A stretch of DNA of 64,000 nt from Candidatus Pampinifervens sinense (GTDB taxonomy: Bacteria; Aquificota; Aquificia; Aquificales; Aquificaceae): assembly GCA_037927135.1 (NCBI GenBank), contig JAXSPP010000004.1, positions 64,001 to 128,000 of the forward strand, written 5' to 3'. Positions within the stretch are counted from its first letter, which is position 1. The number at the start of each line of letters is the position of its first letter. The notes below the pieces were generated by a model that was given only the letters and a program-made list of their open reading frames with translations, was not told the origin of the DNA and ran no database searches. Positions 31,016 through 41,156 of the stretch are shown here, piece after piece. A program made the position numbers and the translations under genes.

Positions 31016-34000
31016 TCAGCTCTTCCTTCCGAACTTTTCATATACCAAAGGAAGTATCAGCAAGGTGAGGGCTGTGGAAGTAAAGATGCCCCCTATAACC
31101 ACCACCGCCAAAGGTTTTTGAACCTCCGACCCTATGCCTTTAGAGAATAACATGGGCAAAAGGCCCAAGGATGCTGCCGTGGCTGTTATAAGGATGGGCC
31201 TTAGCCTTCTTGAGGCACCCAAAAGCACAGCCTCTTTGAGGCTATATCCATTTTCCAGCAAGGACCTCACATAAGATATTAAAACCACTCCGTTGAGTGT
31301 GGCTATGCCAAAGAGGGCTATAAAGCCCACCGCAGAAGGGACAGAAAGGTTATAACCGGATATATACAAGGAAAGCACGCCACCTATGGTGGCAAAGGGA
31401 ACGTTCAGGATAACTATGAGGGCATCCCTAAGGGAGTTATAGTTTAGATAAAGGAGTAGCAATATAAGAAGAACAGACAAAGGCACCACTATGGAAAGCC
31501 TCTTCATTGCCCTCTCTTGGTTTTCAAACTGCCCGCCAAAGCTTATAAAGTAGCCAGGTGGAAGCTTAACCTCTTTTGCTATCCTTTCCTTTATTTCCTT
31601 TACAAAGCCTCCCAGATCTCTGCCTTGAAGGTTGGATTGCACAAGGGCAAACCTCATGCCGTTCTCCCTCCTTATCTTTAAAAAACCTTCAGTTATCTCC
31701 ACATCCGCCACCTGTGAGAGGGTCAATATGTTGCCATCCTTTGTGATAAGGGGTAAGTTCTTTATGCTCTCTAGGTCCTTCTTCTCTAGACCCAAGACCA
31801 AGGGGAAGAGTATGGTGTCTTGCTGTATGTAGCCTACTTCCCTTCCTCCCAAGGCATAGGCCACCAAGTTCATAAGCTCTGCGGTGGTCAGGTTGTACCT
31901 TTTTAACACCTCCATCTTTGGCACTATCCTTAGTTGTAGCTTTCCAGACTGGGCTTCCGTTTCCACATCCACAGCACCCTTTACACCCTTTACTATCTCC
32001 TCAATCTTATAGGCTATCTCGTTTATCTTTTTTAGGTCATCGCCAAAGACCTTTATGGCTACAGTGGATTTCACACCCGAAAGGAGTTCATCTATCCTCA
32101 TCTGTATGGGCTGTGTAAAGCTAAACTCCACACCCGGAATGCCTTCCAGCCTTTCCCTTAGTATGTTTTCAAACTCCTGCCTGCTTTTGAAGCTTTTCCA
32201 TTCCTCCGCAGGCCTAAGGATTATAAAGGTCTCAATGTAGCTAAGGTCCTCAGGCTCTCCCACCTCAGCCCTCCCTATGTTGGAAAAGGTCCTTACCACC
32301 TCTGGGTATTCAAGGGCAGTCTCCTCTACCACCCTTGCCACCCTTTTGGCCTCTTCCATGGAGACGTTTGGGTTCAAAAAGGACTTTACCAAAAGGGCTC
32401 CCTCCTCCAGTTGTGGGGCAAACTCTGTTCCTATGCGGGAAAGTAGGAAAAGGGAGAATAAGAAAAGGCCAAGGGTGGCCGTCAAAAGCAAGCTTCTAAT
32501 CTTAAAGGCACCTTCCAAAAGCTTTAGATAGAGTTCTCTTAGCCTTTTGAAAAAGTAAGTCTCTTCCCTTCCGGGCTTTATCACATAGTAGGAAAGCACG
32601 GGCATAAAGAGAAAGGCTACCACCAAGGAAGAAAAGAGGGCAAGGATGATGGTGAGGGCCAAGGGCTTGTAGTATTTTCCTTCCACAGATTCAAAGCTAA
32701 AGATGGGCAAAAAGACAAGCATGATAATGCCTACTGCAAAGCTAACGGGCCTTAGGACCTCGCTTACAGATTCAACTATTATGGAAAACTTGTTTGCCTG
32801 TGGCCTCTCAGAAAGATGTCTGTATATATTCTCCACCACCACCACGGTGGCGTCCGCAAAAAGGCCTATACCTATGGCAAGACCGCCAAGGGTCATGAGG
32901 TTTCCAGAGATGCCAAGGTTTTTGAGAAAGATAAAGGTGATAAGAAGGGTAAGTGGTACAGAGAGGGCCACCAAAAGGGCAACTCTAAGGTTCCACATAT
33001 AAAGGGCTATGGCCAGAGATACCAACAGTATGCCTTCTATAAGGGCCCTTTCTACGGTGGAGAGGGCCTTTTGAGTAAGGTAGGACTGGTCATAAAGGAC
33101 CTCCACCTTTAAGCCCTCTGGCAATATCTTTTGAACCTCTTCAAGCTTCTTTTTTAGCTCTTCTACAAGCTCCATGGTGTTTGTTTGAACCCTTTTCAAA
33201 ACTATGTTGCCTTGAACCTCTTGGCCGTTGAGGGTGAAGACGCCCCTCCTGTTTGGAAGCTCGGAGGGCAAGACCTCTGCCACATCTTTTATGGTAAGGC
33301 TTACTCCTCCCTCCTTCTTTATAGGTACATTCTCCACCTCTTCTATGCTTTTTAGCCTTCCAAGACCTCTTACCACAAGGTCTCCTTCTGGAGATTGCAA
33401 AAAGCCCCCACCCGCTATCTGGTTATAGTCTTCCAAGGCTTTTACCACATCCTCCAAGCTTATGCCGTATAAAACCATCTTTTCTGGCTTTAGCCTTATG
33501 AGGTATGCCCTTTCTGGCCCCCATTGGGATATGTCTTCCACGCCATCGGTGGCCTTTATAATGGGCCTTATCTTCCACATCTGGATGGTCTTTAGGTCCT
33601 CAAGGGAGTAGTTTCCCTTTTCATCCAAAAGGGCATAAAAAAGCACGTTGCCAAGGCCGGAGGTGTTTGGACCCATCCTTGGCACATAGCCCTGTGGTAT
33701 TTGGGCTTGGGCCTCTGGAAGCTTTTGGGCCACAAGGTTTCTGGCAAAGTATATGTCTGTGCCATCTTTAAAAAAGACGCTCACATAGGAGAGACCCGGA
33801 AGACTTACAGACCTTACAAGCTCCACATCCTTTATACCAGACAAAACAAACTCTATGGGCTTGGTGACCAAAAGCTCCGTTTCCTCCGCAGAGAGGCCCG
33901 GCGTTTCTGTGTATATGATCACCTGAACGGGTGTGGGATCTGGGAAGGTATCTATGGGTAGCTTTTTGAAGGACCAAAGGCCAAGGGCCACCACTCCAAA

Positions 34001-34045
34001 AAGAAGCAAAAGCACCAAAAGCCTGTACTTTAAGACCTTCCTCAT
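31016..34045 (-). CDS. CusA/CzcA family heavy-metal efflux RND permease
   Basis: LPIDTFPD, NLMTLGGLAIGIG.FADATVVVVEN, GGQFENQ.RA, RLRPILIT. Confidence 0.92.
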   Translation of the reverse strand: MRKVLKYRLLVLLLLFGVVALGLWSFKKLPIDTFPDPTPVQVIIYTETPGLSAEETELLVTKPIEFVLSGIKDVELVRSVSLPGLSYVSVFFKDGTDIYFARNLVAQKLPEAQAQIPQGYVPRMGPNTSGLGNVLFYALLDEKGNYSLEDLKTIQMWKIRPIIKATDGVEDISQWGPERAYLIRLKPEKMVLYGISLEDVVKALEDYNQIAGGGFLQSPEGDLVVRGLGRLKSIEEVENVPIKKEGGVSLTIKDVAEVLPSELPNRRGVFTLNGQEVQGNIVLKRVQTNTMELVEELKKKLEEVQKILPEGLKVEVLYDQSYLTQKALSTVERALIEGILLVSLAIALYMWNLRVALLVALSVPLTLLITFIFLKNLGISGNLMTLGGLAIGIGLFADATVVVVENIYRHLSERPQANKFSIIVESVSEVLRPVSFAVGIIMLVFLPIFSFESVEGKYYKPLALTIILALFSSLVVAFLFMPVLSYYVIKPGREETYFFKRLRELYLKLLEGAFKIRSLLLTATLGLFLFSLFLLSRIGTEFAPQLEEGALLVKSFLNPNVSMEEAKRVARVVEETALEYPEVVRTFSNIGRAEVGEPEDLSYIETFIILRPAEEWKSFKSRQEFENILRERLEGIPGVEFSFTQPIQMRIDELLSGVKSTVAIKVFGDDLKKINEIAYKIEEIVKGVKGAVDVETEAQSGKLQLRIVPKMEVLKRYNLTTAELMNLVAYALGGREVGYIQQDTILFPLVLGLEKKDLESIKNLPLITKDGNILTLSQVADVEITEGFLKIRRENGMRFALVQSNLQGRDLGGFVKEIKERIAKEVKLPPGYFISFGGQFENQERAMKRLSIVVPLSVLLILLLLYLNYNSLRDALIVILNVPFATIGGVLSLYISGYNLSVPSAVGFIALFGIATLNGVVLISYVRSLLENGYSLKEAVLLGASRRLRPILITATAASLGLLPMLFSKGIGSEVQKPLAVVVIGGIFTSTALTLLILPLVYEKFGRKS

Positions 34046-34049
34046 CTCT

Positions 34050-35078
34050 CTACCTCTCTACCTGAGATTTAAGGAATACAAGACCGCTCATGGCCACCCT
34101 TTCACCTTTTCTTATGCTCCCCTCCACAAGCACCTTGTCCCCCACCTCCTTTACCTTCCTTACCCTTCTTACCTCAAAACCTTCCTTAGTTTTCACAAAG
34201 ACCACATAATCCTCTCCAAGCCTTTGAAGGCTCTGGGCAGGAAGCCAAAGGCCCCTTATATTCCCAAGCTGAAGGTAGACATCCACCATAAGGCCTGGCC
34301 TCAAAAGCTCTTCCCTGTTTTCCACCAAAAGCCTTATGGGAACCCTCTTTGTGTTCTTATCCACCTCCCCCGATATATAATCCACAGTCCCCCAAAGCCT
34401 TTTATCCTTCCAAAGCACATAACCTTTTGTCCCCTTTTTTATCCTATCCACATCCCTTGGGTCCGCATAGGCATATACCCAAAGCCTCTCATAAGACTGG
34501 ATTTTAAACATCTCCTTAGAAGGGTCCACACCGGACCCAACAAAAACACTTTGTTCCACCACATAACCGCTTATGGGGGACCTAACAAATACCTCGTTTT
34601 CCCTTACCTCACCAAAGGACCTAAGGGCCATCAAAAGAGCCTCATACTCCCCCTTTGCCTTCTCATACTCTATCTTTGCACCGTAATACCTGGCATAGGG
34701 AATGACCTCTTCCTTGTATAGCATCTCCTCCCTCCTTAGCGTTTCCTCCGCCGTCTTTAGCCTCACCTTTGCCATCCTTATCTGGGCCTGAAGCTCTGCC
34801 ACCTGTGGAGAGTAGACAGAGGCCAAGGCTTGACCCCTTTTCACAAAATCACCCTGCTTTACAAAAAGCCTTTTCACTATACCAGAGACTGGAGAATGGA
34901 CTTGAGCCACAGAGTTTGAATAATTGCTAACCTGTGCGGGAAGCCTTAGCTCCTCCACCACCTCTTCCTCCTTTACCTCCCAAAGTTTTATGCCAAGCTT
35001 TTTCTCCTTTTCTGGGTCCAGCCTTATAACCTGGGAGAAGGAAAGAATAGGCAAAAGCAAAAGAACCCAAAGCCTCAT
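34050..35078 (-). CDS. RND efflux periplasmic adaptor (CzcB-like)
   Basis: SPVSGIV...V..GD.V, RSPISG.V, LRPGL; between TolC and RND genes. Confidence 0.9.
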   Translation of the reverse strand: MRLWVLLLLPILSFSQVIRLDPEKEKKLGIKLWEVKEEEVVEELRLPAQVSNYSNSVAQVHSPVSGIVKRLFVKQGDFVKRGQALASVYSPQVAELQAQIRMAKVRLKTAEETLRREEMLYKEEVIPYARYYGAKIEYEKAKGEYEALLMALRSFGEVRENEVFVRSPISGYVVEQSVFVGSGVDPSKEMFKIQSYERLWVYAYADPRDVDRIKKGTKGYVLWKDKRLWGTVDYISGEVDKNTKRVPIRLLVENREELLRPGLMVDVYLQLGNIRGLWLPAQSLQRLGEDYVVFVKTKEGFEVRRVRKVKEVGDKVLVEGSIRKGERVAMSGLVFLKSQVER

Positions 35079-36244
35079 AGCTCACCCCCAAGGCTTAAAT
35101 ATTTGGCATACTCCTCGTGTGCCTGCCTTATTAGTTCCAGCCTATACTTTAAAAGCTCCACATACCTTCTCTTTGTCTCTGTAAGCTCCAAAAGGGTTAT
35201 GGTCCTCAGCTTATAGCTCTTTATGGCAAGGCTAAGCTCCTCCTTTGCCCTTGGTATGGTCTGCTTTTCTATCCTTTCTATCTCTTCCAAAAGCTTTTCA
35301 TACCTTGACCTGACAAGCTCATAATCCCTTTTTAAGCTTAGCTCCTCCAGACTTTTCCTAAGCTCCATGCTCCTCCTTTCTGCCAAAAGTTGTAATATTT
35401 CTCCCTCCCTTCTGTAGAATAGTGGAAGAGTGGCAGAAATACCAACTCTGAAGCCATACTCTTGGGAAGAAACCTTTTCTCCAAGCACTGTAAGGCTAAA
35501 CTGGGGCTTGGAAAGTATTCTTTCTACCTCTATGCCCGCCTCCAAGCCCTTTATGGCATATTGGTACTGCCTTAGCCTTGGTGAATTTTCAAAGTTTATC
35601 TCCTTTATGCTGTGTAGCCTGTCAAAGCTTTCTTCCAAGTCCTCCACCCTCTGGCCGATAAGGTAAGAGAGATTTTTTAAGGCGTTCTCATAGTCCCTTT
35701 GGGCCATCTCCAACTCAACCCTTGCCAAATCAAGCTCCCTTTCGGACCTAAAGACCTCCAGCTTGGTGGTCTCTCCAAGTTCAAAAAGCCTTTTTATAAA
35801 ACTGTGAAGCTCTTGGCTTATCTTGTAGTTTTCCTGTGCCACTTTTAATAGTTCTTTCCTGTATAGGGCCATATAGTAGGCCAGATAGACCTCGCTTATC
35901 AAAAGGCTTTTTTCCTGCTCCATCTTTTCAAGGAAGGCCTTCTCTTCGTAATCTACCATCTTTTTGAAGCTTTTCCCAATGGGATAAATACTAAGAGGTT
36001 GAGAGTAAGAAAGGCTGTATATAGGATTTGTTTTGACGCTTTCCTTTGATGTGCCAAAGTTTCCCACTTCTACCTCAAGGCTTGGGTTTAGGTAGGACCT
36101 GTAGGTCATGGCCTTGCCCTTGAACTTGACGCTTTCTTCCTTTAGCGCCTTTAAGGATGGATAGTGCTCCAAAGCCCTATCAATGGCACCCCTTAGGTCT
36201 ATGGCGTAGCACACTTGGATAAGCAAAAGTAGGGCTATTATCAT
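35075..36244 (-). CDS. TolC/CzcC family outer-membrane efflux protein
   Basis: Signal peptide, A...YPSL, helical repeats with ELGETTKLE and YKL..ITLLEL; operon context. Confidence 0.85.
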   Translation of the reverse strand: MIIALLLLIQVCYAIDLRGAIDRALEHYPSLKALKEESVKFKGKAMTYRSYLNPSLEVEVGNFGTSKESVKTNPIYSLSYSQPLSIYPIGKSFKKMVDYEEKAFLEKMEQEKSLLISEVYLAYYMALYRKELLKVAQENYKISQELHSFIKRLFELGETTKLEVFRSERELDLARVELEMAQRDYENALKNLSYLIGQRVEDLEESFDRLHSIKEINFENSPRLRQYQYAIKGLEAGIEVERILSKPQFSLTVLGEKVSSQEYGFRVGISATLPLFYRREGEILQLLAERRSMELRKSLEELSLKRDYELVRSRYEKLLEEIERIEKQTIPRAKEELSLAIKSYKLRTITLLELTETKRRYVELLKYRLELIRQAHEEYAKYLSLGGEL

Positions 36245-36642
36245 GGCGTTTTAATAAGGTGTTCATATACCACAACCCCACCCATCCATCCCTGCAAAAA
36301 TAAAAGCAATACACCAATCAAAAGCATGATTGTAAAAAGGTTCCTCTTCTTATAAAACCTGACAAGGCCAAGGGCCAAAAAGTACAAAGCCAAAAATAGG
36401 CCTAAGGCCTCATGATACTTGAAGATAGATATGCTTTCCAAAAGCTTTTCAACAGGCTCGTGGGCTATTATACCCGATATGCTTCCTCCCACTACCGCCA
36501 AGACAGATAAATAGGTCAAAAGGGCATGCAAGCCATCAAGCTCCCTTTTTGTAATCCTATAATACATATCAACCACAAGCAGAAATGCTGGAAAGGCAAT
36601 GGCAAAATGCACCACTGGTGGATGTAGCTTAATAAGTTCCAT
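36241..36642 (-). CDS. DUF2231 family membrane protein
   Basis: LHPPVVHFAIA, second conserved His (YHE), GWMGG.VVY. Confidence 0.8.
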   Translation of the reverse strand: MELIKLHPPVVHFAIAFPAFLLVVDMYYRITKRELDGLHALLTYLSVLAVVGGSISGIIAHEPVEKLLESISIFKYHEALGLFLALYFLALGLVRFYKKRNLFTIMLLIGVLLLFLQGWMGGVVVYEHLIKTP

Positions 36643-36665
36643 GTTTTAATTTTAACTTACCAAGC

Positions 36666-36681
36666 TTAACATAAACTTAAC
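36666..36681 (-). promoter_or_regulatory. candidate OmpR-family operator GTTAA-N6-GTTAA upstream of the efflux operon
   Basis: TTAAC at 36666 and 36677 (11-nt period), 11 nt from -10 TAAAAT (36649-36654). Confidence 0.6.
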
Positions 36682-37913
36682 CGCAACTTCAAGGAAGCCT
36701 CCACCCTATAGCCTTCTTCTACCCTCTCTTGTCCTATTTTTAAATCACAGCCCATCATCTTACACAGGTTATAAGCCACATAAAGGCCTATGCCCGTATG
36801 CCTTCCCTCAAAGGGCTTAAAAAGAACCCTCTCTTCTACAGGCTTTTCCGAAAGGTTGCTCACCTTTACATAAACATATTCTCCATCCTTTTCCACCCTT
36901 ATATCCACCTTACCATCTTCAATGCCATGCCTTATGGCGTTATCCACAAGCACGCCAAGCACCTCCAAAAGCACATCCCTATCACAATAAGCACAAAGAG
37001 GTTCTTCCCAAAGGTTTAGCCTTATCCTTTTGCCCTCTGGGTCATACAGCCTTACTATGCCTTTTAAAACCTCCTCCAGATTGCACCTTTCCTTCTTTAT
37101 AAGGTCCTGCTGGCTTTCCATTTTGGCCATCCTAAGGAATGTGCTTAGGCTTCTTTCTAGCCTCCACAGCTCTTCATGGATAGTCTTTAGCCTATCATCT
37201 TTATGGGACCTCATGAGGTCTTCCAAAAGAAGAAGGGCAGTAGAGAGGGGAGTTTTTACAGAGTGGCTGAGGGCCAAAAGGATGTTCCTATGCCTTTCTG
37301 CACTCTCCCTTATTTTCTTTATCCCCTCATACACCTTTTCCATAAAGGGCTTTAGCTCTTCATATACCTTTTCATCAAATCTCTGTTCAAAAAGGCTATC
37401 ACTTGCCCTCTTTATAGAATTTAGCAAAGACCTTACGGTAAAAAGGTATATGCCAGCCAAGATGAGAAGGAATGAAAGCCATGATAGGAACAAAAAGACC
37501 TTTAACCTTTCTAAAAACTCCTTTTCTGATGTGAAGTTTACCGCATACTGCACATAAAAGCCGTCCTTCCTTTGGTAGGTTAGCATCCTGTAAAACCTGT
37601 CTCCTACCTTTACAAGTCGTAAATCTGGCATTGTCCAGTCTTTACTAAAGGGTAAAGAGATGTCTTCCGAAACTTCCAAAAGAGTCCCATCGGGCGTCCT
37701 TATGGCATAAAGCTCATAGCCTGGGTGAGGCTCAAAGTCTTTTCCCAAAAAGTAAGATTGTTCAAAGATCCTCGCATCATCCGCTATGTGCCTGTCCACC
37801 GATGCAAGAAGGGCCTTTTCCACCACCATATAAAGCACAAGGCTATAGAAAGCAAAGAGAAGAAGGAGAATTGCAAAAAACAAATTTAGATGAAGCTTTA
37901 TGGACCTTTTCAT
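36666..37913 (-). CDS. sensor histidine kinase
   Basis: Two TM helices, H-box SHSVKTPL, N-box DNAIRHG, G-box GIGL. Confidence 0.9.
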   Translation of the reverse strand: MKRSIKLHLNLFFAILLLLFAFYSLVLYMVVEKALLASVDRHIADDARIFEQSYFLGKDFEPHPGYELYAIRTPDGTLLEVSEDISLPFSKDWTMPDLRLVKVGDRFYRMLTYQRKDGFYVQYAVNFTSEKEFLERLKVFLFLSWLSFLLILAGIYLFTVRSLLNSIKRASDSLFEQRFDEKVYEELKPFMEKVYEGIKKIRESAERHRNILLALSHSVKTPLSTALLLLEDLMRSHKDDRLKTIHEELWRLERSLSTFLRMAKMESQQDLIKKERCNLEEVLKGIVRLYDPEGKRIRLNLWEEPLCAYCDRDVLLEVLGVLVDNAIRHGIEDGKVDIRVEKDGEYVYVKVSNLSEKPVEERVLFKPFEGRHTGIGLYVAYNLCKMMGCDLKIGQERVEEGYRVEASLKLRLSLC

Positions 37914-38560
37914 TCCACCATATACCCCAATCCTTTTACAGATTTTATGATATGCTTTGACCCAAGCTTCTTCCTTATCCTTGAGATAAGCACCTCCAAG
38001 CTGTTGCTATCGGAGTGGTAGTAAAAGACCTTTTCCCTTAGCTCCTCCTTGCTTACATACCTTCCCCTGTTTAGACACAGGTATTCAAGGATGGCATACT
38101 CTCCATGGGTAAGCTTTATCTCCTCCCCTTTCACAAAGACCTTTTTCCTTCCCATATCCAGTCTCAAATCCTCTATCTGTATCACATCGGAAGATCCTCC
38201 ATACCTCCTCCTTATCAAGGCCCTCACCCTTGCCAAAAGCTCTTCAAGATGAAAAGGCTTAGTAAGATAGTCATCCGCACCCAAAGTGAAAAGCTTGACC
38301 TTTTGAGATATATCTCCCATAACAGTTAGCATAAGAATAGGTGTATTGACCCCCTCTTCCCTTAGCCTTTTTACTATCTTATCCCCCTCCAAAGTGGGAA
38401 GAAGAAGGTCCAGAATAATGAGATCAAAGCCTCCACTTAAAGCCAGCTCAAGCCCCCTTTTACCATCCGAAGCCAAGCTGACCCTGTAGCCTTCCCTCTC
38501 AAGGATGCTCTTTAAAGACCTTGCCAGAGAAAGGTCATCCTCTATGAGGAGCACCCTCAA
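37910..38560 (-). CDS. OmpR/PhoB family response regulator
   Basis: IEDD, LDLLLP, GADDYLTKPF, wHTH with LEVLISRIRKKL, VKGLGY. Confidence 0.95.
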   Translation of the reverse strand: MRVLLIEDDLSLARSLKSILEREGYRVSLASDGKRGLELALSGGFDLIILDLLLPTLEGDKIVKRLREEGVNTPILMLTVMGDISQKVKLFTLGADDYLTKPFHLEELLARVRALIRRRYGGSSDVIQIEDLRLDMGRKKVFVKGEEIKLTHGEYAILEYLCLNRGRYVSKEELREKVFYYHSDSNSLEVLISRIRKKLGSKHIIKSVKGLGYMVE

Positions 38561-38847
38561 GGTCTTGGCGTTGCCTCCATTAGCATCTTTTTACGTATTT
38601 CATAATGTTCCCTTCTTTTTTGTTCTTTTACATCCATCATACAAAGCTTCATATCCCTATAGCTTTTTGCCTTCTCCACACACTCTCTTTCCTTGGGAAG
38701 ATACTTCTCCTTTAGCTTTATCTTTTCCAGCATATACACTTTACACTTTTCCCAGTTTTGTTCACACCACTCTTTGTGCATCTTTCCATCCATGGGATGG
38801 GCAAGGCTTACGCTTGTAAGAACCATCAAAAGTAGAAGTTTCTTCAT
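38557..38847 (-). CDS. small exported helical protein (Cys/His/Met-rich)
   Basis: Signal peptide ending SLA, AGGAGG SD, four Cys, overlaps RR start. Confidence 0.75.
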   Translation of the reverse strand: MKKLLLLMVLTSVSLAHPMDGKMHKEWCEQNWEKCKVYMLEKIKLKEKYLPKERECVEKAKSYRDMKLCMMDVKEQKRREHYEIRKKMLMEATPRP

Positions 38848-38978: not shown

Positions 38979-41156
38979 ATGTGGAGAGTGATATATACTG
39001 GCCAGAGGCCACACTATGAGAACATAGCCCTTGATAGGATCATGCTAGACCTTATGGCAGAGAATAAAATCCCACCAACAATAAGGTTTCTGCAGTTCAA
39101 GCCAGAATGTGTTCTTATAGGCTTCCACCAGGCGGTAGAACAAGAGGTAAGGCTTGAATATACTCAAAGGGAAGGTATAGAGGTGGGAAGGCGTATAACG
39201 GGCGGTGGTGCCATATACTTTGATGAAACCCAGATAGGCTGGGAGGTGATAGCCACAAAGGACCATCTTGGGGACCTAAACTACGAAGAGCTTACAAGGA
39301 AGATATGCACTGGCGTGGCAAAGGGGCTTCAAAAGCTTGGAATAAAGGCGGAGTTCAGGCCAAGGAATGACATAGAGGTGGAGGGAAGGAAGATTTCTGG
39401 CACCGGCGGAGTTTTTGAGGGCAAGGCCTTTTTATACCAAGGCACTGTGCTTATGGATTTTAACGTAGAGAGGATGTTAAAGTCCTTGCAGATACCCGTG
39501 GAAAAGCTAACCTCTAAGGGGATAAAATCTGCAGAGGACAGGGTAGAGTGGGTAAAGAGGGCTTTGGGCTATCTTCCGGAGAAGGAAAAGGTCTTTGAGG
39601 CCATACTCCAAGGGTTAAAGGAGGAGCTAAACATTGACTTCCAATGGGGAGAGCTGACCGATGAGGAGCTGAGGCTCCTTGAAGAAAAGAAGGACTACTT
39701 TAGAAGTGAGGAATGGATATACCATGTAAAGAAGGCTCCCACCGACAGCGAGATGCTCTTTGGTATATACAGGTGTCCAGGTGGAACCTTTAGGGTCTCC
39801 GCCAAGGTGGACCTTCAAAGCAAAGTCTTACAACAGATTATCATAAACGGAGACTTCTTTGTAAGGCCCCAAAGGCTCATATACGACCTTGAGGCCTATC
39901 TAAAGCATACGCCCATAAAAGATGTGGAAAAAAGGATAAGGGAGTTTTTCTCTCAAAGAGAATGGGAAGGTCTAAACCTAAGGGTAGAAGACTTTGTAGA
40001 AGCTGTCTTGTTTCCCCTTAGAAAGATAGAAGGTGTGGAACTTGGCATAGAAAAAAAAAGATTGAATAACATAATAGCCTCTATAGGAGGAGGCCTAATA
40101 GAAAACCTTCAAAAGGCAAAGGTTATGCTCCTTCCTTACTGTGCCAAGCCAAGATGGTGTGATTACAGACACCTTGACGACTGTGGTGAATGTGGTGGAT
40201 GCACCGTGGGCGATGCCTACAGGCTTGCCTACCAAAAGGGTATGATACCCATAACTATAACTTCTTTTGAACTTCTTAGAGACACCCTTCTCTGGTGTGC
40301 CCAAAATGGCTACACCTATGTAGGCCACTGCTGTTATGAGTTTTATGAAAAGAGGTATGAGATATTCAAAAGGGCTGCGGAAGAAGGTGCCAAGGGTGTG
40401 CTTTTTGACATAGTGGGAACCACATGCTACAGCCTTGGAGTGGAAGAGGAGGAAAAAGCCTATCATGGAGAGTTCACTGTGGAGCTGGATCTAATAAAAG
40501 AGGATTTATACAAGAGTCTTTCCGTTAAAGAGGATGTGGAAAAGGTAGAAAGACAAAGGGTTGACTTTGACTTCTCGCCATATCTCTTGGAATTCAAGCC
40601 TAGCTACTACAAAAAGCCAAAGGCTGTGCCTACACCAAAGGAGGATATGACGAGAACTTCTATGCAAAGGGAGGTCTTCTTAGGGGAGGCCACCATTGAG
40701 GAGAAAGCGGTAAGCTATAAAGAGGCTTTGGAGCTTCTTGCCAAATGGATAAAAGAGTCGGAAAGGCCTACCATAGTGCTTGGACCTCTTGTCTTTTGGG
40801 ACTTTGGAGAAAGAGATCTTCAAGAAAAGGCAAAGGCTGTGAGAGACCTTATAGAAAAGGTAGGAAGGTTCAACGTTAAAGTCCTTCCAGATTATAGGCC
40901 AAAGCTGAAAAAGTATGACCCTTCTGTGGAGATGGACCCACCAAACCCCCATCATGCCATCTTACATGGCAAGCATGACCTCACCATCCTTGTGGGAGTC
41001 CATTGCTACAGGACAGACTTTGTTATAAGACTTTTGAGAAAACACACGGATACAAAGATAGCAACCTTGTGTGGCCTATACGGCCATCCTACAGCCCATC
41101 TTTCCACTGCCTTTACCGATGCGCAAAAGATTGAAGACCTGATAAAGCTACTTTAG
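38979..41156 (+). CDS. lipoate--protein ligase fused to Cys-rich DUF116-like and PorD/ForD(CO_dh)-like domains
   Basis: RRITGGGAIY, RNDIEVEGRKISG (LplA core), GDFF (LplB domain), LLPYCAKP..C...CGECGGC..GHCC, C-terminal GPLVFW..PDYRPK..VGVHC..LC..GH. Confidence 0.82.
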   Translation: MWRVIYTGQRPHYENIALDRIMLDLMAENKIPPTIRFLQFKPECVLIGFHQAVEQEVRLEYTQREGIEVGRRITGGGAIYFDETQIGWEVIATKDHLGDLNYEELTRKICTGVAKGLQKLGIKAEFRPRNDIEVEGRKISGTGGVFEGKAFLYQGTVLMDFNVERMLKSLQIPVEKLTSKGIKSAEDRVEWVKRALGYLPEKEKVFEAILQGLKEELNIDFQWGELTDEELRLLEEKKDYFRSEEWIYHVKKAPTDSEMLFGIYRCPGGTFRVSAKVDLQSKVLQQIIINGDFFVRPQRLIYDLEAYLKHTPIKDVEKRIREFFSQREWEGLNLRVEDFVEAVLFPLRKIEGVELGIEKKRLNNIIASIGGGLIENLQKAKVMLLPYCAKPRWCDYRHLDDCGECGGCTVGDAYRLAYQKGMIPITITSFELLRDTLLWCAQNGYTYVGHCCYEFYEKRYEIFKRAAEEGAKGVLFDIVGTTCYSLGVEEEEKAYHGEFTVELDLIKEDLYKSLSVKEDVEKVERQRVDFDFSPYLLEFKPSYYKKPKAVPTPKEDMTRTSMQREVFLGEATIEEKAVSYKEALELLAKWIKESERPTIVLGPLVFWDFGERDLQEKAKAVRDLIEKVGRFNVKVLPDYRPKLKKYDPSVEMDPPNPHHAILHGKHDLTILVGVHCYRTDFVIRLLRKHTDTKIATLCGLYGHPTAHLSTAFTDAQKIEDLIKLL

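Follow-up and report, generated by a model that had tools for sequence, protein, structure and literature searches.

A lipoate–protein ligase fused to DUF116 and delta-like CO_dh domains in the Aquificaceae, with a candidate slippage site at its domain boundary

The sLpl(AB) lipoate–protein ligases consist of an LplA and an LplB module and belong to the sLpl(AB)–LipS1/LipS2 pathway, which is tied to LbpA and sHdr sulfur oxidation and for which the gene arrangement lipS1-slpl(AB)-lipT-lipS2 has been described (PMC10332631, PMC6067878). In their available text, the papers on these ligases mention no extra domain (Cao et al., 2018, PMC6067878; Tanabe et al., 2023, PMC10332631; bioRxiv 10.64898/2026.10.01.755906). 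Here we describe a ligase gene of Candidatus Pampinifervens sinense (Aquificota, Aquificaceae), which lies in a stretch of 64,000 nucleotides referred to below as the window (assembly GCA_037927135.1, contig JAXSPP010000004.1, positions 64,001 to 128,000 of the forward strand). The LplA and LplB modules are common to its product and to sLpl(AB), and the genome likewise contains LbpA-, LipS1/S2-, LipT- and sHdr-like genes. The window protein, however, adds a DUF116 domain and a delta-like CO_dh domain, whereas the DUF116-less ligases recovered from the genera of the characterised proteobacterial enzymes are mostly about 355–390 aa long. In the Aquificaceae the gene lies outside any lipS/lipT cluster, although the cluster is present in relatives from other phyla, and a run of nine A's (A9) is found at the domain boundary of the window protein.

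Both added domains have described counterparts. For the stand-alone DUF116 proteins (arCOG02078, COG1852), a flavodoxin-like fold and a role in electron transfer were proposed (Makarova et al., 2015, PMC5898192). As far as that account goes, a Cys-rich globular domain with a CxxCxxC motif and a predicted flavodoxin-like fold is common to both forms, but the stand-alone proteins have two N-terminal transmembrane helices, whereas the window domain has none, is internal and directly follows LplB, and has a borderline Pfam score. The CO_dh domain resembles the fifth subunit, delta, of the Por/For oxidoreductases, which is similar to the epsilon subunit of CODH/ACS and whose role is given as unknown in the accessible part of PMC10052474; a review from 2026 likewise states, in its available text, that there is no structure of delta and that its position and role are unknown (PMC13768988). 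Five-subunit enzymes bearing delta have been linked with oxygen tolerance (PMC8115632; bioRxiv 10.64898/2026.09.02.748891, as far as available). The window domain has the Pfam family CO_dh and the motifs DYRPK, G-x-HC and C-x3-GH in common with these subunits (PMC10052474, PMC13768988). In contrast to the true deltas, which are encoded upstream of alpha-subunit genes, it forms the tail of a ligase gene with unrelated flanking genes.

The A9 run also has a described counterpart. In dnaX of Thermus thermophilus, transcriptional slippage on an A9 run gives a shorter product that accounts for about half of the total (Larsen et al., 2000, as reported in PMC1088944), and in Shigella mxiE slippage is needed for the longer product; according to the same source, nine A's is a length at which many genomes avoid such runs (PMC1088944). 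The window gene and Thermus dnaX have in common a sense-strand A9, close stops in the other frames and a predicted pair of short and long products. The gene family is different, and the window case is known from sequence and from a single RNA-library contig with ten A's. A further point in common is that one pair of products would be obtained by orthologs that differ in their frame layout.

We consider it probable, on balance, that this gene codes for the sLpl(AB) of the Aquificaceae, which would start LipS1/LipS2-dependent lipoate assembly on LbpA, with DUF116 as a helper and with slippage on the A9 run.

Architecture and distribution of the fusion

The gene is one uninterrupted open reading frame (ORF) of 725 aa (Table 1). 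An earlier note on this DNA had read from it LplA and LplB, a Cys-rich DUF116 region and a CO_dh domain; all four domain calls held in Pfam and NCBIfam scans, and the motifs it had quoted (YCAKPRWC, DDCGECGGC, GHCC, TTC, PTIVLGPLVFW, PDYRPK, VGVHC and LCGLYGH) are present in the translation. The family scores were uneven: Lip_prot_lig_C (PF10437) matched residues 265–341 with 17.3 bits against a cut-off of 24 in the Pfam scan, and TIGR00545 reached 175.6 bits against 280 in the NCBIfam scan of the 725-aa protein. DUF116 (PF01976) matched residues 355–427 with 23.6 bits against a cut-off of 25 in the protein scan and passed this cut-off with 26.2 bits in a six-frame search of the genome; it was also passed by close and distant relatives of the window protein. 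Profile searches of the PDB gave 1vqz for the LplA region (E 1.8e-39) and 3r07_C, LplA subunit 2, for residues 262–344 (E 2.2e-13).

A full-length AlphaFold2 model was obtained with a mean per-residue confidence (pLDDT) of 86.9 and a predicted TM-score (pTM) of 0.73. Using Foldseek, the N-terminal half of this model was matched to Listeria LplA1 (8cri_A, E 1.7e-22, target-normalised TM 0.84), and the target-normalised TM values to LplA structures rose to 0.84–0.85. There is little or no difference in the two ligase motifs, RRITGGGAIYFD and GRKISGTGG, between the window protein and the two-domain relatives compared; the Lys of the second is presumably the lipoyl-AMP site. The earlier note knew of no described function for this architecture, and a literature search agreed with it in finding none; nor did it find a paper combining DUF116 and lipoate.

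Table 1. Features of the three-domain ligase gene (positions are those of the window)
Feature	Residues	Position	Strand	Evidence
Whole ORF: LplA–LplB ligase, DUF116 and delta-like CO_dh domain	1–725	38979..41156	+	ATG to stop, uninterrupted; profile scans
LplA catalytic domain	12–213	39012..39617	+	Pfam PF21948 (LplA-B_cat), E 7.8e-45; RRITGGGAIYFD and GRKISGTGG motifs intact
LplB-like accessory domain	262–345	39762..40013	+	NF053749 (LplB) over residues 262–343, 45.1 bits, below the cut-off of 65 (NCBIfam scan); PF10437 weak; 3r07_C match
A9 homopolymer, candidate slippage site at the ligase/DUF116 boundary	358–361	40051..40059	+	GAA AAA AAA AGA = E358 K359 K360 R361
Out-of-frame stops directly 3' of the A9 run		40063..40069	+	TGA 40063–40065 if one A is lost; TAA 40067–40069 if one A is gained
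DUF116-type domain	358–520	40050..40538	+	Pfam; seven invariant Cys; domain model
Linker	521–569	40539..40685	+	YYKKPKAVPTP..ED.TR; kept within Aquificaceae only; lower pLDDT
CO_dh domain, paralog of Por/For delta	570–717	40686..41129	+	Pfam PF02552, 115.2 bits (cut-off 21)

Relatives were collected at E ≤ 0.001 from 8000 scored candidates, which gave 1253 proteins. Three-domain proteins of about 726 aa were named from Hydrogenobacter, Thermocrinis, Hydrogenivirga and Aquifex, and a form of 663–671 aa from Hydrogenobaculum. Ligase–DUF116 proteins of about 517 aa, 44–48% identical, came from Nitrospirota, Actinomycetota, Thermoplasmatota, Asgard archaea and others. We also surveyed 151 genomes of the Aquificota, among them those of families f1 to f5. 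Some match was present in 70 of the 72 genomes of f1, and matches over the full length (residues 1–725 or nearly so) were found in most f1 genera; the four genomes of one f1 genus, g8, gave just a match of 29–30% identity to residues 43–343. In f2, 16 of 44 genomes had a match (E 1e-19 to 1e-24), for which the row listed covers residues 569–714, the CO_dh part, and none of the 34 genomes of f3 to f5 had any. The earlier note had allowed that the fusion could be an assembly artefact; the fusion recurs, however, in most of the Aquificaceae genomes searched, and its full length is found in many of them, including several single-contig assemblies, so the three-domain fusion is real and lineage-wide in the Aquificaceae.

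Two aberrant forms were noticed. In P0058, a protein of 1117 aa, DUF116 and CO_dh are preceded by two LplA catalytic stretches; the protein may be an intermediate of the duplication behind the Hydrogenobaculum-like two-gene state, or a mis-assembly. At L141 (G099:C28:31800-34000) the ortholog is in pieces, without residues ~352–415 and without the A-run, and with a further break near residue 238; it is probably a pseudogene, or else the assembly is at fault. When stand-alone relatives of each C-terminal domain were sought in word-index searches, only fragments and split or truncated Aquificaceae forms were returned.

Ligase identity and the DUF116 domain

A profile scan for the two-domain form with one genome per species gave 80 loci, in 69 of which the target ORF was found by script. 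The neighbours within 5 kb were examined at 39 two-domain loci, four of them truncated or split Aquificaceae genes. A LipT-like gene (FAD/geranylgeranyl-reductase-like) was present at 29 of the 39 and was the next gene on the same strand in 25; radical-SAM genes of ~382 aa and ~303 aa were found at 24 and 22 loci, respectively, CCG/Fer4 (Hdr-like) genes at 12, GcvH-like (LbpA) genes at nine, and DsrE, DsrH and TusA genes at seven or fewer each. Twelve DUF116-less ligases from Thioalkalivibrio, Ectothiorhodospira, Sulfuricellaceae and others, 46–49% identical to the ligase part of the window protein, have these neighbours as well. Since the neighbours in other phyla form the published lipS1-slpl(AB)-lipT-lipS2 arrangement, the ligase can be assigned to the sLpl(AB) type. 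In a tree of the ligase part the window protein falls within a clade of 36 rows (SH-aLRT 98), in which ten proteobacterial ligases without DUF116 form one sub-clade (SH-aLRT 99); the rows of this tree do not include experimentally characterised sequences. The link to LbpA/sHdr lipoylation suggested by the earlier note was borne out in that the ligase groups with ligases encoded beside lipS1, lipT, lipS2, lbpA, Hdr-like CCG, DsrE/H and TusA genes. Judged from these comparisons, the gene appears to encode the Aquificaceae form of sLpl(AB), an octanoate/lipoate:protein ligase with predicted transfer to LbpA.

The presumed partners are present in the window genome, dispersed on other contigs and not clustered with the ligase: a LipT-like gene on C7 (41% identity over 350 aa), a LipS-type gene on C6 (47%) and the other LipS-type gene on C5 (42%), which adjoins two lbpA-like genes and an HdrB-like gene. 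Altogether the genome has five GcvH-like genes. The idea that the delta-like domain replaces LipT in the Aquificaceae was ruled out by the presence of this LipT-like gene. A LipS-type gene was found in 61 of the 72 genomes of f1, in none of the four of g8 and in none of the 78 genomes of the other families; within f1 the three-domain gene and the LipS-type gene occur in identical genera. Because the genomes are related, this co-distribution amounts to few independent events.

Other ligation or lipoyl-synthesis genes were also seen. The window genome has two canonical LipA homologs above the family cut-off, one at G000:C2:160416-161240, with one TAA inside the match, and one at C4:35009-35800, which lies outside the window on the same contig, about 29 kb upstream of the window start. 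Some ligase–DUF116 loci (L071, L076, L097, L059 and L098) have a second, distant Lpl(AB) gene nearby.

In 37 aligned sequences, seven Cys of DUF116 are invariant (C388, C394, C402, C405, C408, C452 and C483) and C451 nearly so. The domain was modelled with a pLDDT of 91.2 and a pTM of 0.87 as an alpha/beta fold with the Cys placed after beta strands. A Foldseek search of the PDB with this model gave no match at E ≤ 0.001, and VIA-align against 48161 chains none at Z ≥ 8. In the ESM Atlas the best score was 0.79, a lead only, pointing to DUF116 clusters. That DUF116 might be a diverged HdrB-type CCG domain (PF02754) was rejected, as hhalign against eight HdrB-like proteins gave a probability of 0.9% and there was no match to Pfam CCG.

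A single-sequence search with DUF116 in 1.84 billion representatives gave 160 relatives at E ≤ 0.001. Among the matches listed, most proteins longer than about 480 aa are matched from about residue 345 onward, as in the ligase fusions; two of that size were scanned with Pfam. The Pfam scans, 16 relatives in all, revealed the LplB–DUF116 proteins P0264, P0259 and P0227 and the fusion P0212. Single-ORF fusions of ligase, DUF116 and LipT were found twice, in P0212 (825 aa) and at L065 8001-10682 (893 aa, metagenome-assembled genome (MAG) of Sumerlaeota). The Hydrogenobaculum-like form has lost both ligase motifs, and its ligase domains have just 27–41% identity to those of the window protein, while DUF116 is 74–88% and the delta-like domain 49–70% identical; these genomes have a separate Lpl(AB) paralog of 343–347 aa. 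Since it is kept on a decayed ligase, the DUF116–delta module is under selection on its own, apart from ligase catalysis.

The conserved Cys could also be read in a different way. DUF116 could be a structural zinc domain, which helps to hold LbpA or to oligomerise the ligase; alternatively, it could exchange thiols and disulfides or relay sulfur at the dithiolane of lipoyl-LbpA. Seven to eight conserved Cys suit zinc sites or redox thiols as well as they suit iron–sulfur (Fe–S) clusters, DsrE, DsrH and TusA are sulfur-relay neighbours, and DUF116 invariably adjoins the LplB end of the ligase, also in the three LplB–DUF116 proteins. The strongest and most constant partners are nevertheless the two radical-SAM enzymes and LipT rather than the sulfur-relay genes, and fusions with LipT exist. 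The CxxCxxC motif on top of a flavodoxin-like fold also suggests a cluster, as far as the account in PMC5898192 goes, and the retention of DUF116 on the decayed Hydrogenobaculum-like ligase speaks in the same direction. It therefore seems rather unlikely to us that DUF116 is a zinc or thiol module, and a metal or Fe–S centre that assists LipS1 and LipS2 is the reading followed below.

The A9 run at the ligase/DUF116 boundary

The A9 run was compared at 44 loci of the Aquificaceae, one of which is the window's own genome and some of which represent one genome obtained via two collections. Exactly nine A's are present at 42 of the 44, in 34 distinct contexts of 33 nt. The run starts at codon position 1, 2 or 3 depending on the locus, the residues encoded vary (EKKR, DKKKL, LKKKE, VKKK), and the identity of the flanks falls to about 69–71%. 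At 33 loci the gene is in-frame across the run, and at nine the DUF116–delta part lies in the −1 frame. At these nine loci the ligase frame runs into a stop 10–20 nt downstream of the first A, with the −1 frame already open from 11–41 nt upstream of the run.

These features suggest, by comparison of the sequences, that the run may serve a dnaX-like slippage which gives a short ligase and the 725-aa form. It could be objected that there is no programmed recoding here: the A9 run would simply encode a Lys-rich linker, or would be a mutational hotspot or a phase-variation site, and the −1 genes would be pseudogenes, fissions with internal initiation or assembly errors. Homopolymers are known to be hypermutable at replication (PMC1088944, as far as available), and gene callers place a downstream start at an internal Met, giving proteins of 344–354 aa (P0128, P0137). 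All nine −1 loci come from draft assemblies of several contigs or from MAGs, all single-contig genomes examined are in-frame, and possible starts (GTG or TTG) in the −1 frame were found at two of the nine.

It is difficult to reconcile this objection with a run of exactly nine A's that is kept although its flanks have diverged and its residues vary. The window genome otherwise avoids such runs: it has five A or T runs of nine and none longer, against about 23 expected, and within its 673 ORFs of at least 300 aa the run described here is the sole sense-strand A9. None of 84 KKK triplets is encoded as AAAAAAAAA; in total, AAG is used 15654 times and AAA 8570 times. The other four runs of nine are intergenic, or, in one case, a T9 on the sense strand at residue 494 of a minus-strand ORF of 507 aa (G000:C12:6275), which is the only other such run inside a long ORF of this genome. 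In addition, the difference of one nucleotide at the −1 loci lies beside the A9 run and not within it, and its contexts differ. In a tree of the ligases, in which seven of the nine −1 loci were included (two were too short), the layout changed at least five times independently, four of the changes being forced by well-supported branches. At seven of the nine loci no ATG, GTG or TTG precedes xLLPYC in the −1 frame, and the peptide encoded by this start-less stretch is identical to the window protein at 31–39 of 42 positions; because the −1 frame has no start there and the peptide is nonetheless conserved, the downstream part must be reached from the ligase frame. Finally, the two-gene lineage g6 has no run at the A9 site. 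We thus regard the absence of programmed recoding as unlikely, and slippage on the A9 run is the explanation pursued here.

For 31 in-frame loci (two of the 33 were dropped by a filter), both other frames are stopped within seven codons of the run, with medians of three and two codons. Read from the sequence, a transcript of the window gene with ten A's (A10) would end after 363 residues and one with eight (A8) after 361, and such a ligase-only product would be similar in length to the majority of the stand-alone sLpl(AB)-like ligases recovered. Suggestive, though no more than that, is a 1255-nt contig of a hot-spring RNA library that reads across the junction with ten A's and shows 78 mismatches against the window; it belongs to a relative known from this RNA contig alone. 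Its weight is reduced by the fact that it is a single contig with a depth of about eight and that RNA libraries can contain DNA.

With respect to the mechanism, no conserved RNA structure was detected 3' of the run (alifold −1.86 versus −0.37, standard deviation 0.69, for shuffled columns; median z of the minimum free energy −0.73), which fits slippage rather than ribosomal frameshifting; a −1 ribosomal frameshift on A AAA AAA/G is thus the less likely mechanism. A search of Rfam 3' of the run gave nothing real, with one match at E 0.7, and a scan for promoters and terminators stayed at chance level. Among 38 ligase–DUF116 genes from outside the Aquificae, none has a homopolymer of nine or more. 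In the literature searched, no paper was found that combines 'programmed frameshift' with 'lipoate-protein ligase' or 'transcriptional slippage' with a term for Aquificae.

The delta-like domain and the proposed mechanism

Two further CO_dh proteins are present in the window genome (189 and 237 aa), both encoded upstream of alpha-subunit genes of 2-oxoacid:ferredoxin oxidoreductases. One of them directly precedes its alpha gene and the other is separated from it by an ORF of 179 aa, Uma2-like (L001 944-1483, G000:C2). This ORF, which lies between the Por-delta-type and alpha genes, matches aq_1194, a Uma2-domain gene reported inside the PFOR cluster of A. aeolicus (PMC10052474, as far as available). 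The longer protein has PDYRPK and the GVHC core of VGVHC, and the shorter DYRPK and GVHC. Five Aquificaceae genomes have the same three CO_dh paralogs each, and in an alignment of 18 sequences from six genomes all three paralog groups keep DYRPK, G-x-HC and C-x3-GH without exception, the fused domain forming the third as a group of its own. It is 35% identical to the For-delta-type protein of the window genome (150 aa, E 3e-30), whereas the Por and For deltas are 65% identical to each other, and positions that are near-identical in both true deltas are often replaced in it by a different, itself conserved pattern, which suggests another partner surface. The three-domain gene is not near por/for genes in the window or in the six other Aquificaceae genera compared. 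Hence the earlier note, which had matched motifs of the C-terminal domain to the delta subunit (PorD/ForD), was right about the family, but neither gene context nor grouping makes the domain a part of Por/For. No support was obtained for the link to ferredoxin-dependent carbon-fixation enzymes that the note had inferred.

It has been considered whether the delta-like domain docks the ligase–DUF116 protein onto a Por/For core and couples lipoylation or lipoyl redox to ferredoxin-dependent CO2 fixation. The domain is of the same family as delta and keeps its three motifs, the fusion occurs only in the family having delta-bearing five-subunit enzymes, and the role of delta is described as unknown (PMC10052474, PMC13768988, in the parts available), but the replaced positions, the distance from por/for genes, the f2 genomes that have CO_dh matches and no fusion, and a pull-down of OGOR/PFOR from A. 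aeolicus in which five subunits, Aq_1163 and reverse gyrase 2 are reported and no ligase (PMC10052474, as far as accessible) make such docking highly improbable.

Some further observations concern neighbouring genes and weak matches. Divergent from the ligase gene, the window carries at 31016–38560 (minus strand) a resistance–nodulation–division (RND) efflux set, named by eye from the translations, with a pump of 1009 aa, a membrane-fusion protein of 342 aa, an outer-membrane factor of 389 aa and a membrane protein of 133 aa; genes for a histidine kinase of 415 aa and a response regulator of 216 aa come next. The interval from the latter to the ligase gene contains, at 38557–38847 (minus strand), an ORF of 96 aa with a signal-peptide-like start and several Cys, His and Met. 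Weak CO_dh matches of 19–21 bits to profile positions 23–72 were seen in ORFs of 585–614 aa at G000:C8:22941-23087 and similarly in G011, G014, G024 and G033.

We propose the following course for the sLpl(AB)-type ligase with its DUF116 helper and A9 run. The ligase would start LipS1/LipS2 lipoate assembly on the LbpA carriers of sHdr sulfur oxidation. DUF116 would provide a metal or Fe–S centre that serves LipS1 and LipS2, the two radical-SAM enzymes of sulfur insertion. Electrons could pass from NAD(P)H via the LipT flavin and DUF116 to LipS1/S2, or DUF116 could re-supply the sacrificial clusters of these enzymes, and either way it would work on octanoyl-LbpA held by the ligase. The delta-like domain might perhaps shield the DUF116 centre or act as its adaptor, or might dock a low-potential ferredoxin; that it docks onto Por/For itself is less likely. 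RNA polymerase slippage on the A9 run would yield two products, a free ligase of ~361–363 aa and the 725-aa ligase–DUF116–delta protein, and in the window gene standard decoding would give the long form and slippage the short one.

In addition to the −1-frame starts at two loci, the origin of all −1 loci in draft assemblies and the single A10 contig, several observations weigh against this proposal. It is conceivable that the −1-layout loci are errors or pseudogenes. No neighbour of the three-domain gene is common to more than two of seven loci (the window and six other genera). A metal or Fe–S centre in DUF116 is plausible from seven to eight conserved Cys after the beta strands of a model, and this model's best VIA-align score, Z 6.7, was for generic Rossmann, flavodoxin, CheY or P-type-ATPase folds. 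In seven of the 12 DUF116-less clusters lipT is also the next gene, so the LipT fusions may reflect gene order and not a specific link between DUF116 and LipT. In the best tree DUF116 was lost in the Proteobacteria; this loss is not established, because an approximately unbiased (AU) test did not reject a single clade of all DUF116-bearing ligases (p-AU 0.152). The role given to the delta-like domain is drawn by analogy.

The proposal can be carried further. The slippage could set the ratio of free to tethered ligase, an Fe–S form of DUF116 could feed LipS1/LipS2, and the delta-like domain could be an oxygen shield or a ferredoxin adaptor. The literature on oxygen tolerance of the delta-bearing enzymes prompts the idea that this domain protects or serves a low-potential centre. 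We consider this extended version speculative and, taken as a whole, quite unlikely.

In summary, the gene represents a genuine and conserved variant of a ligase already known, to which two unstudied accessory domains and a strong candidate site for recoding are added, and what is new is the conserved A9 run exactly at the ligase/DUF116 boundary. The LipS1/LipS2 route has been described recently and was studied with DUF116-less proteobacterial ligases, whereas most of the clade members recovered here carry DUF116. If DUF116 were the missing redox or cluster partner of LipS1/S2, reconstitutions of the pathway in vitro would need it. With the delta-like domain, a family whose role in oxygen-tolerant carbon-fixation enzymes is given as unknown in the available text of PMC10052474 and PMC13768988 is met in a second, independent context. 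Candidates for programmed slippage, such as this A9 run, are rare in cellular metabolic genes, and the Aquificaceae offer natural controls for such slippage, with both frame layouts and a lineage in which the run has been replaced by two genes.

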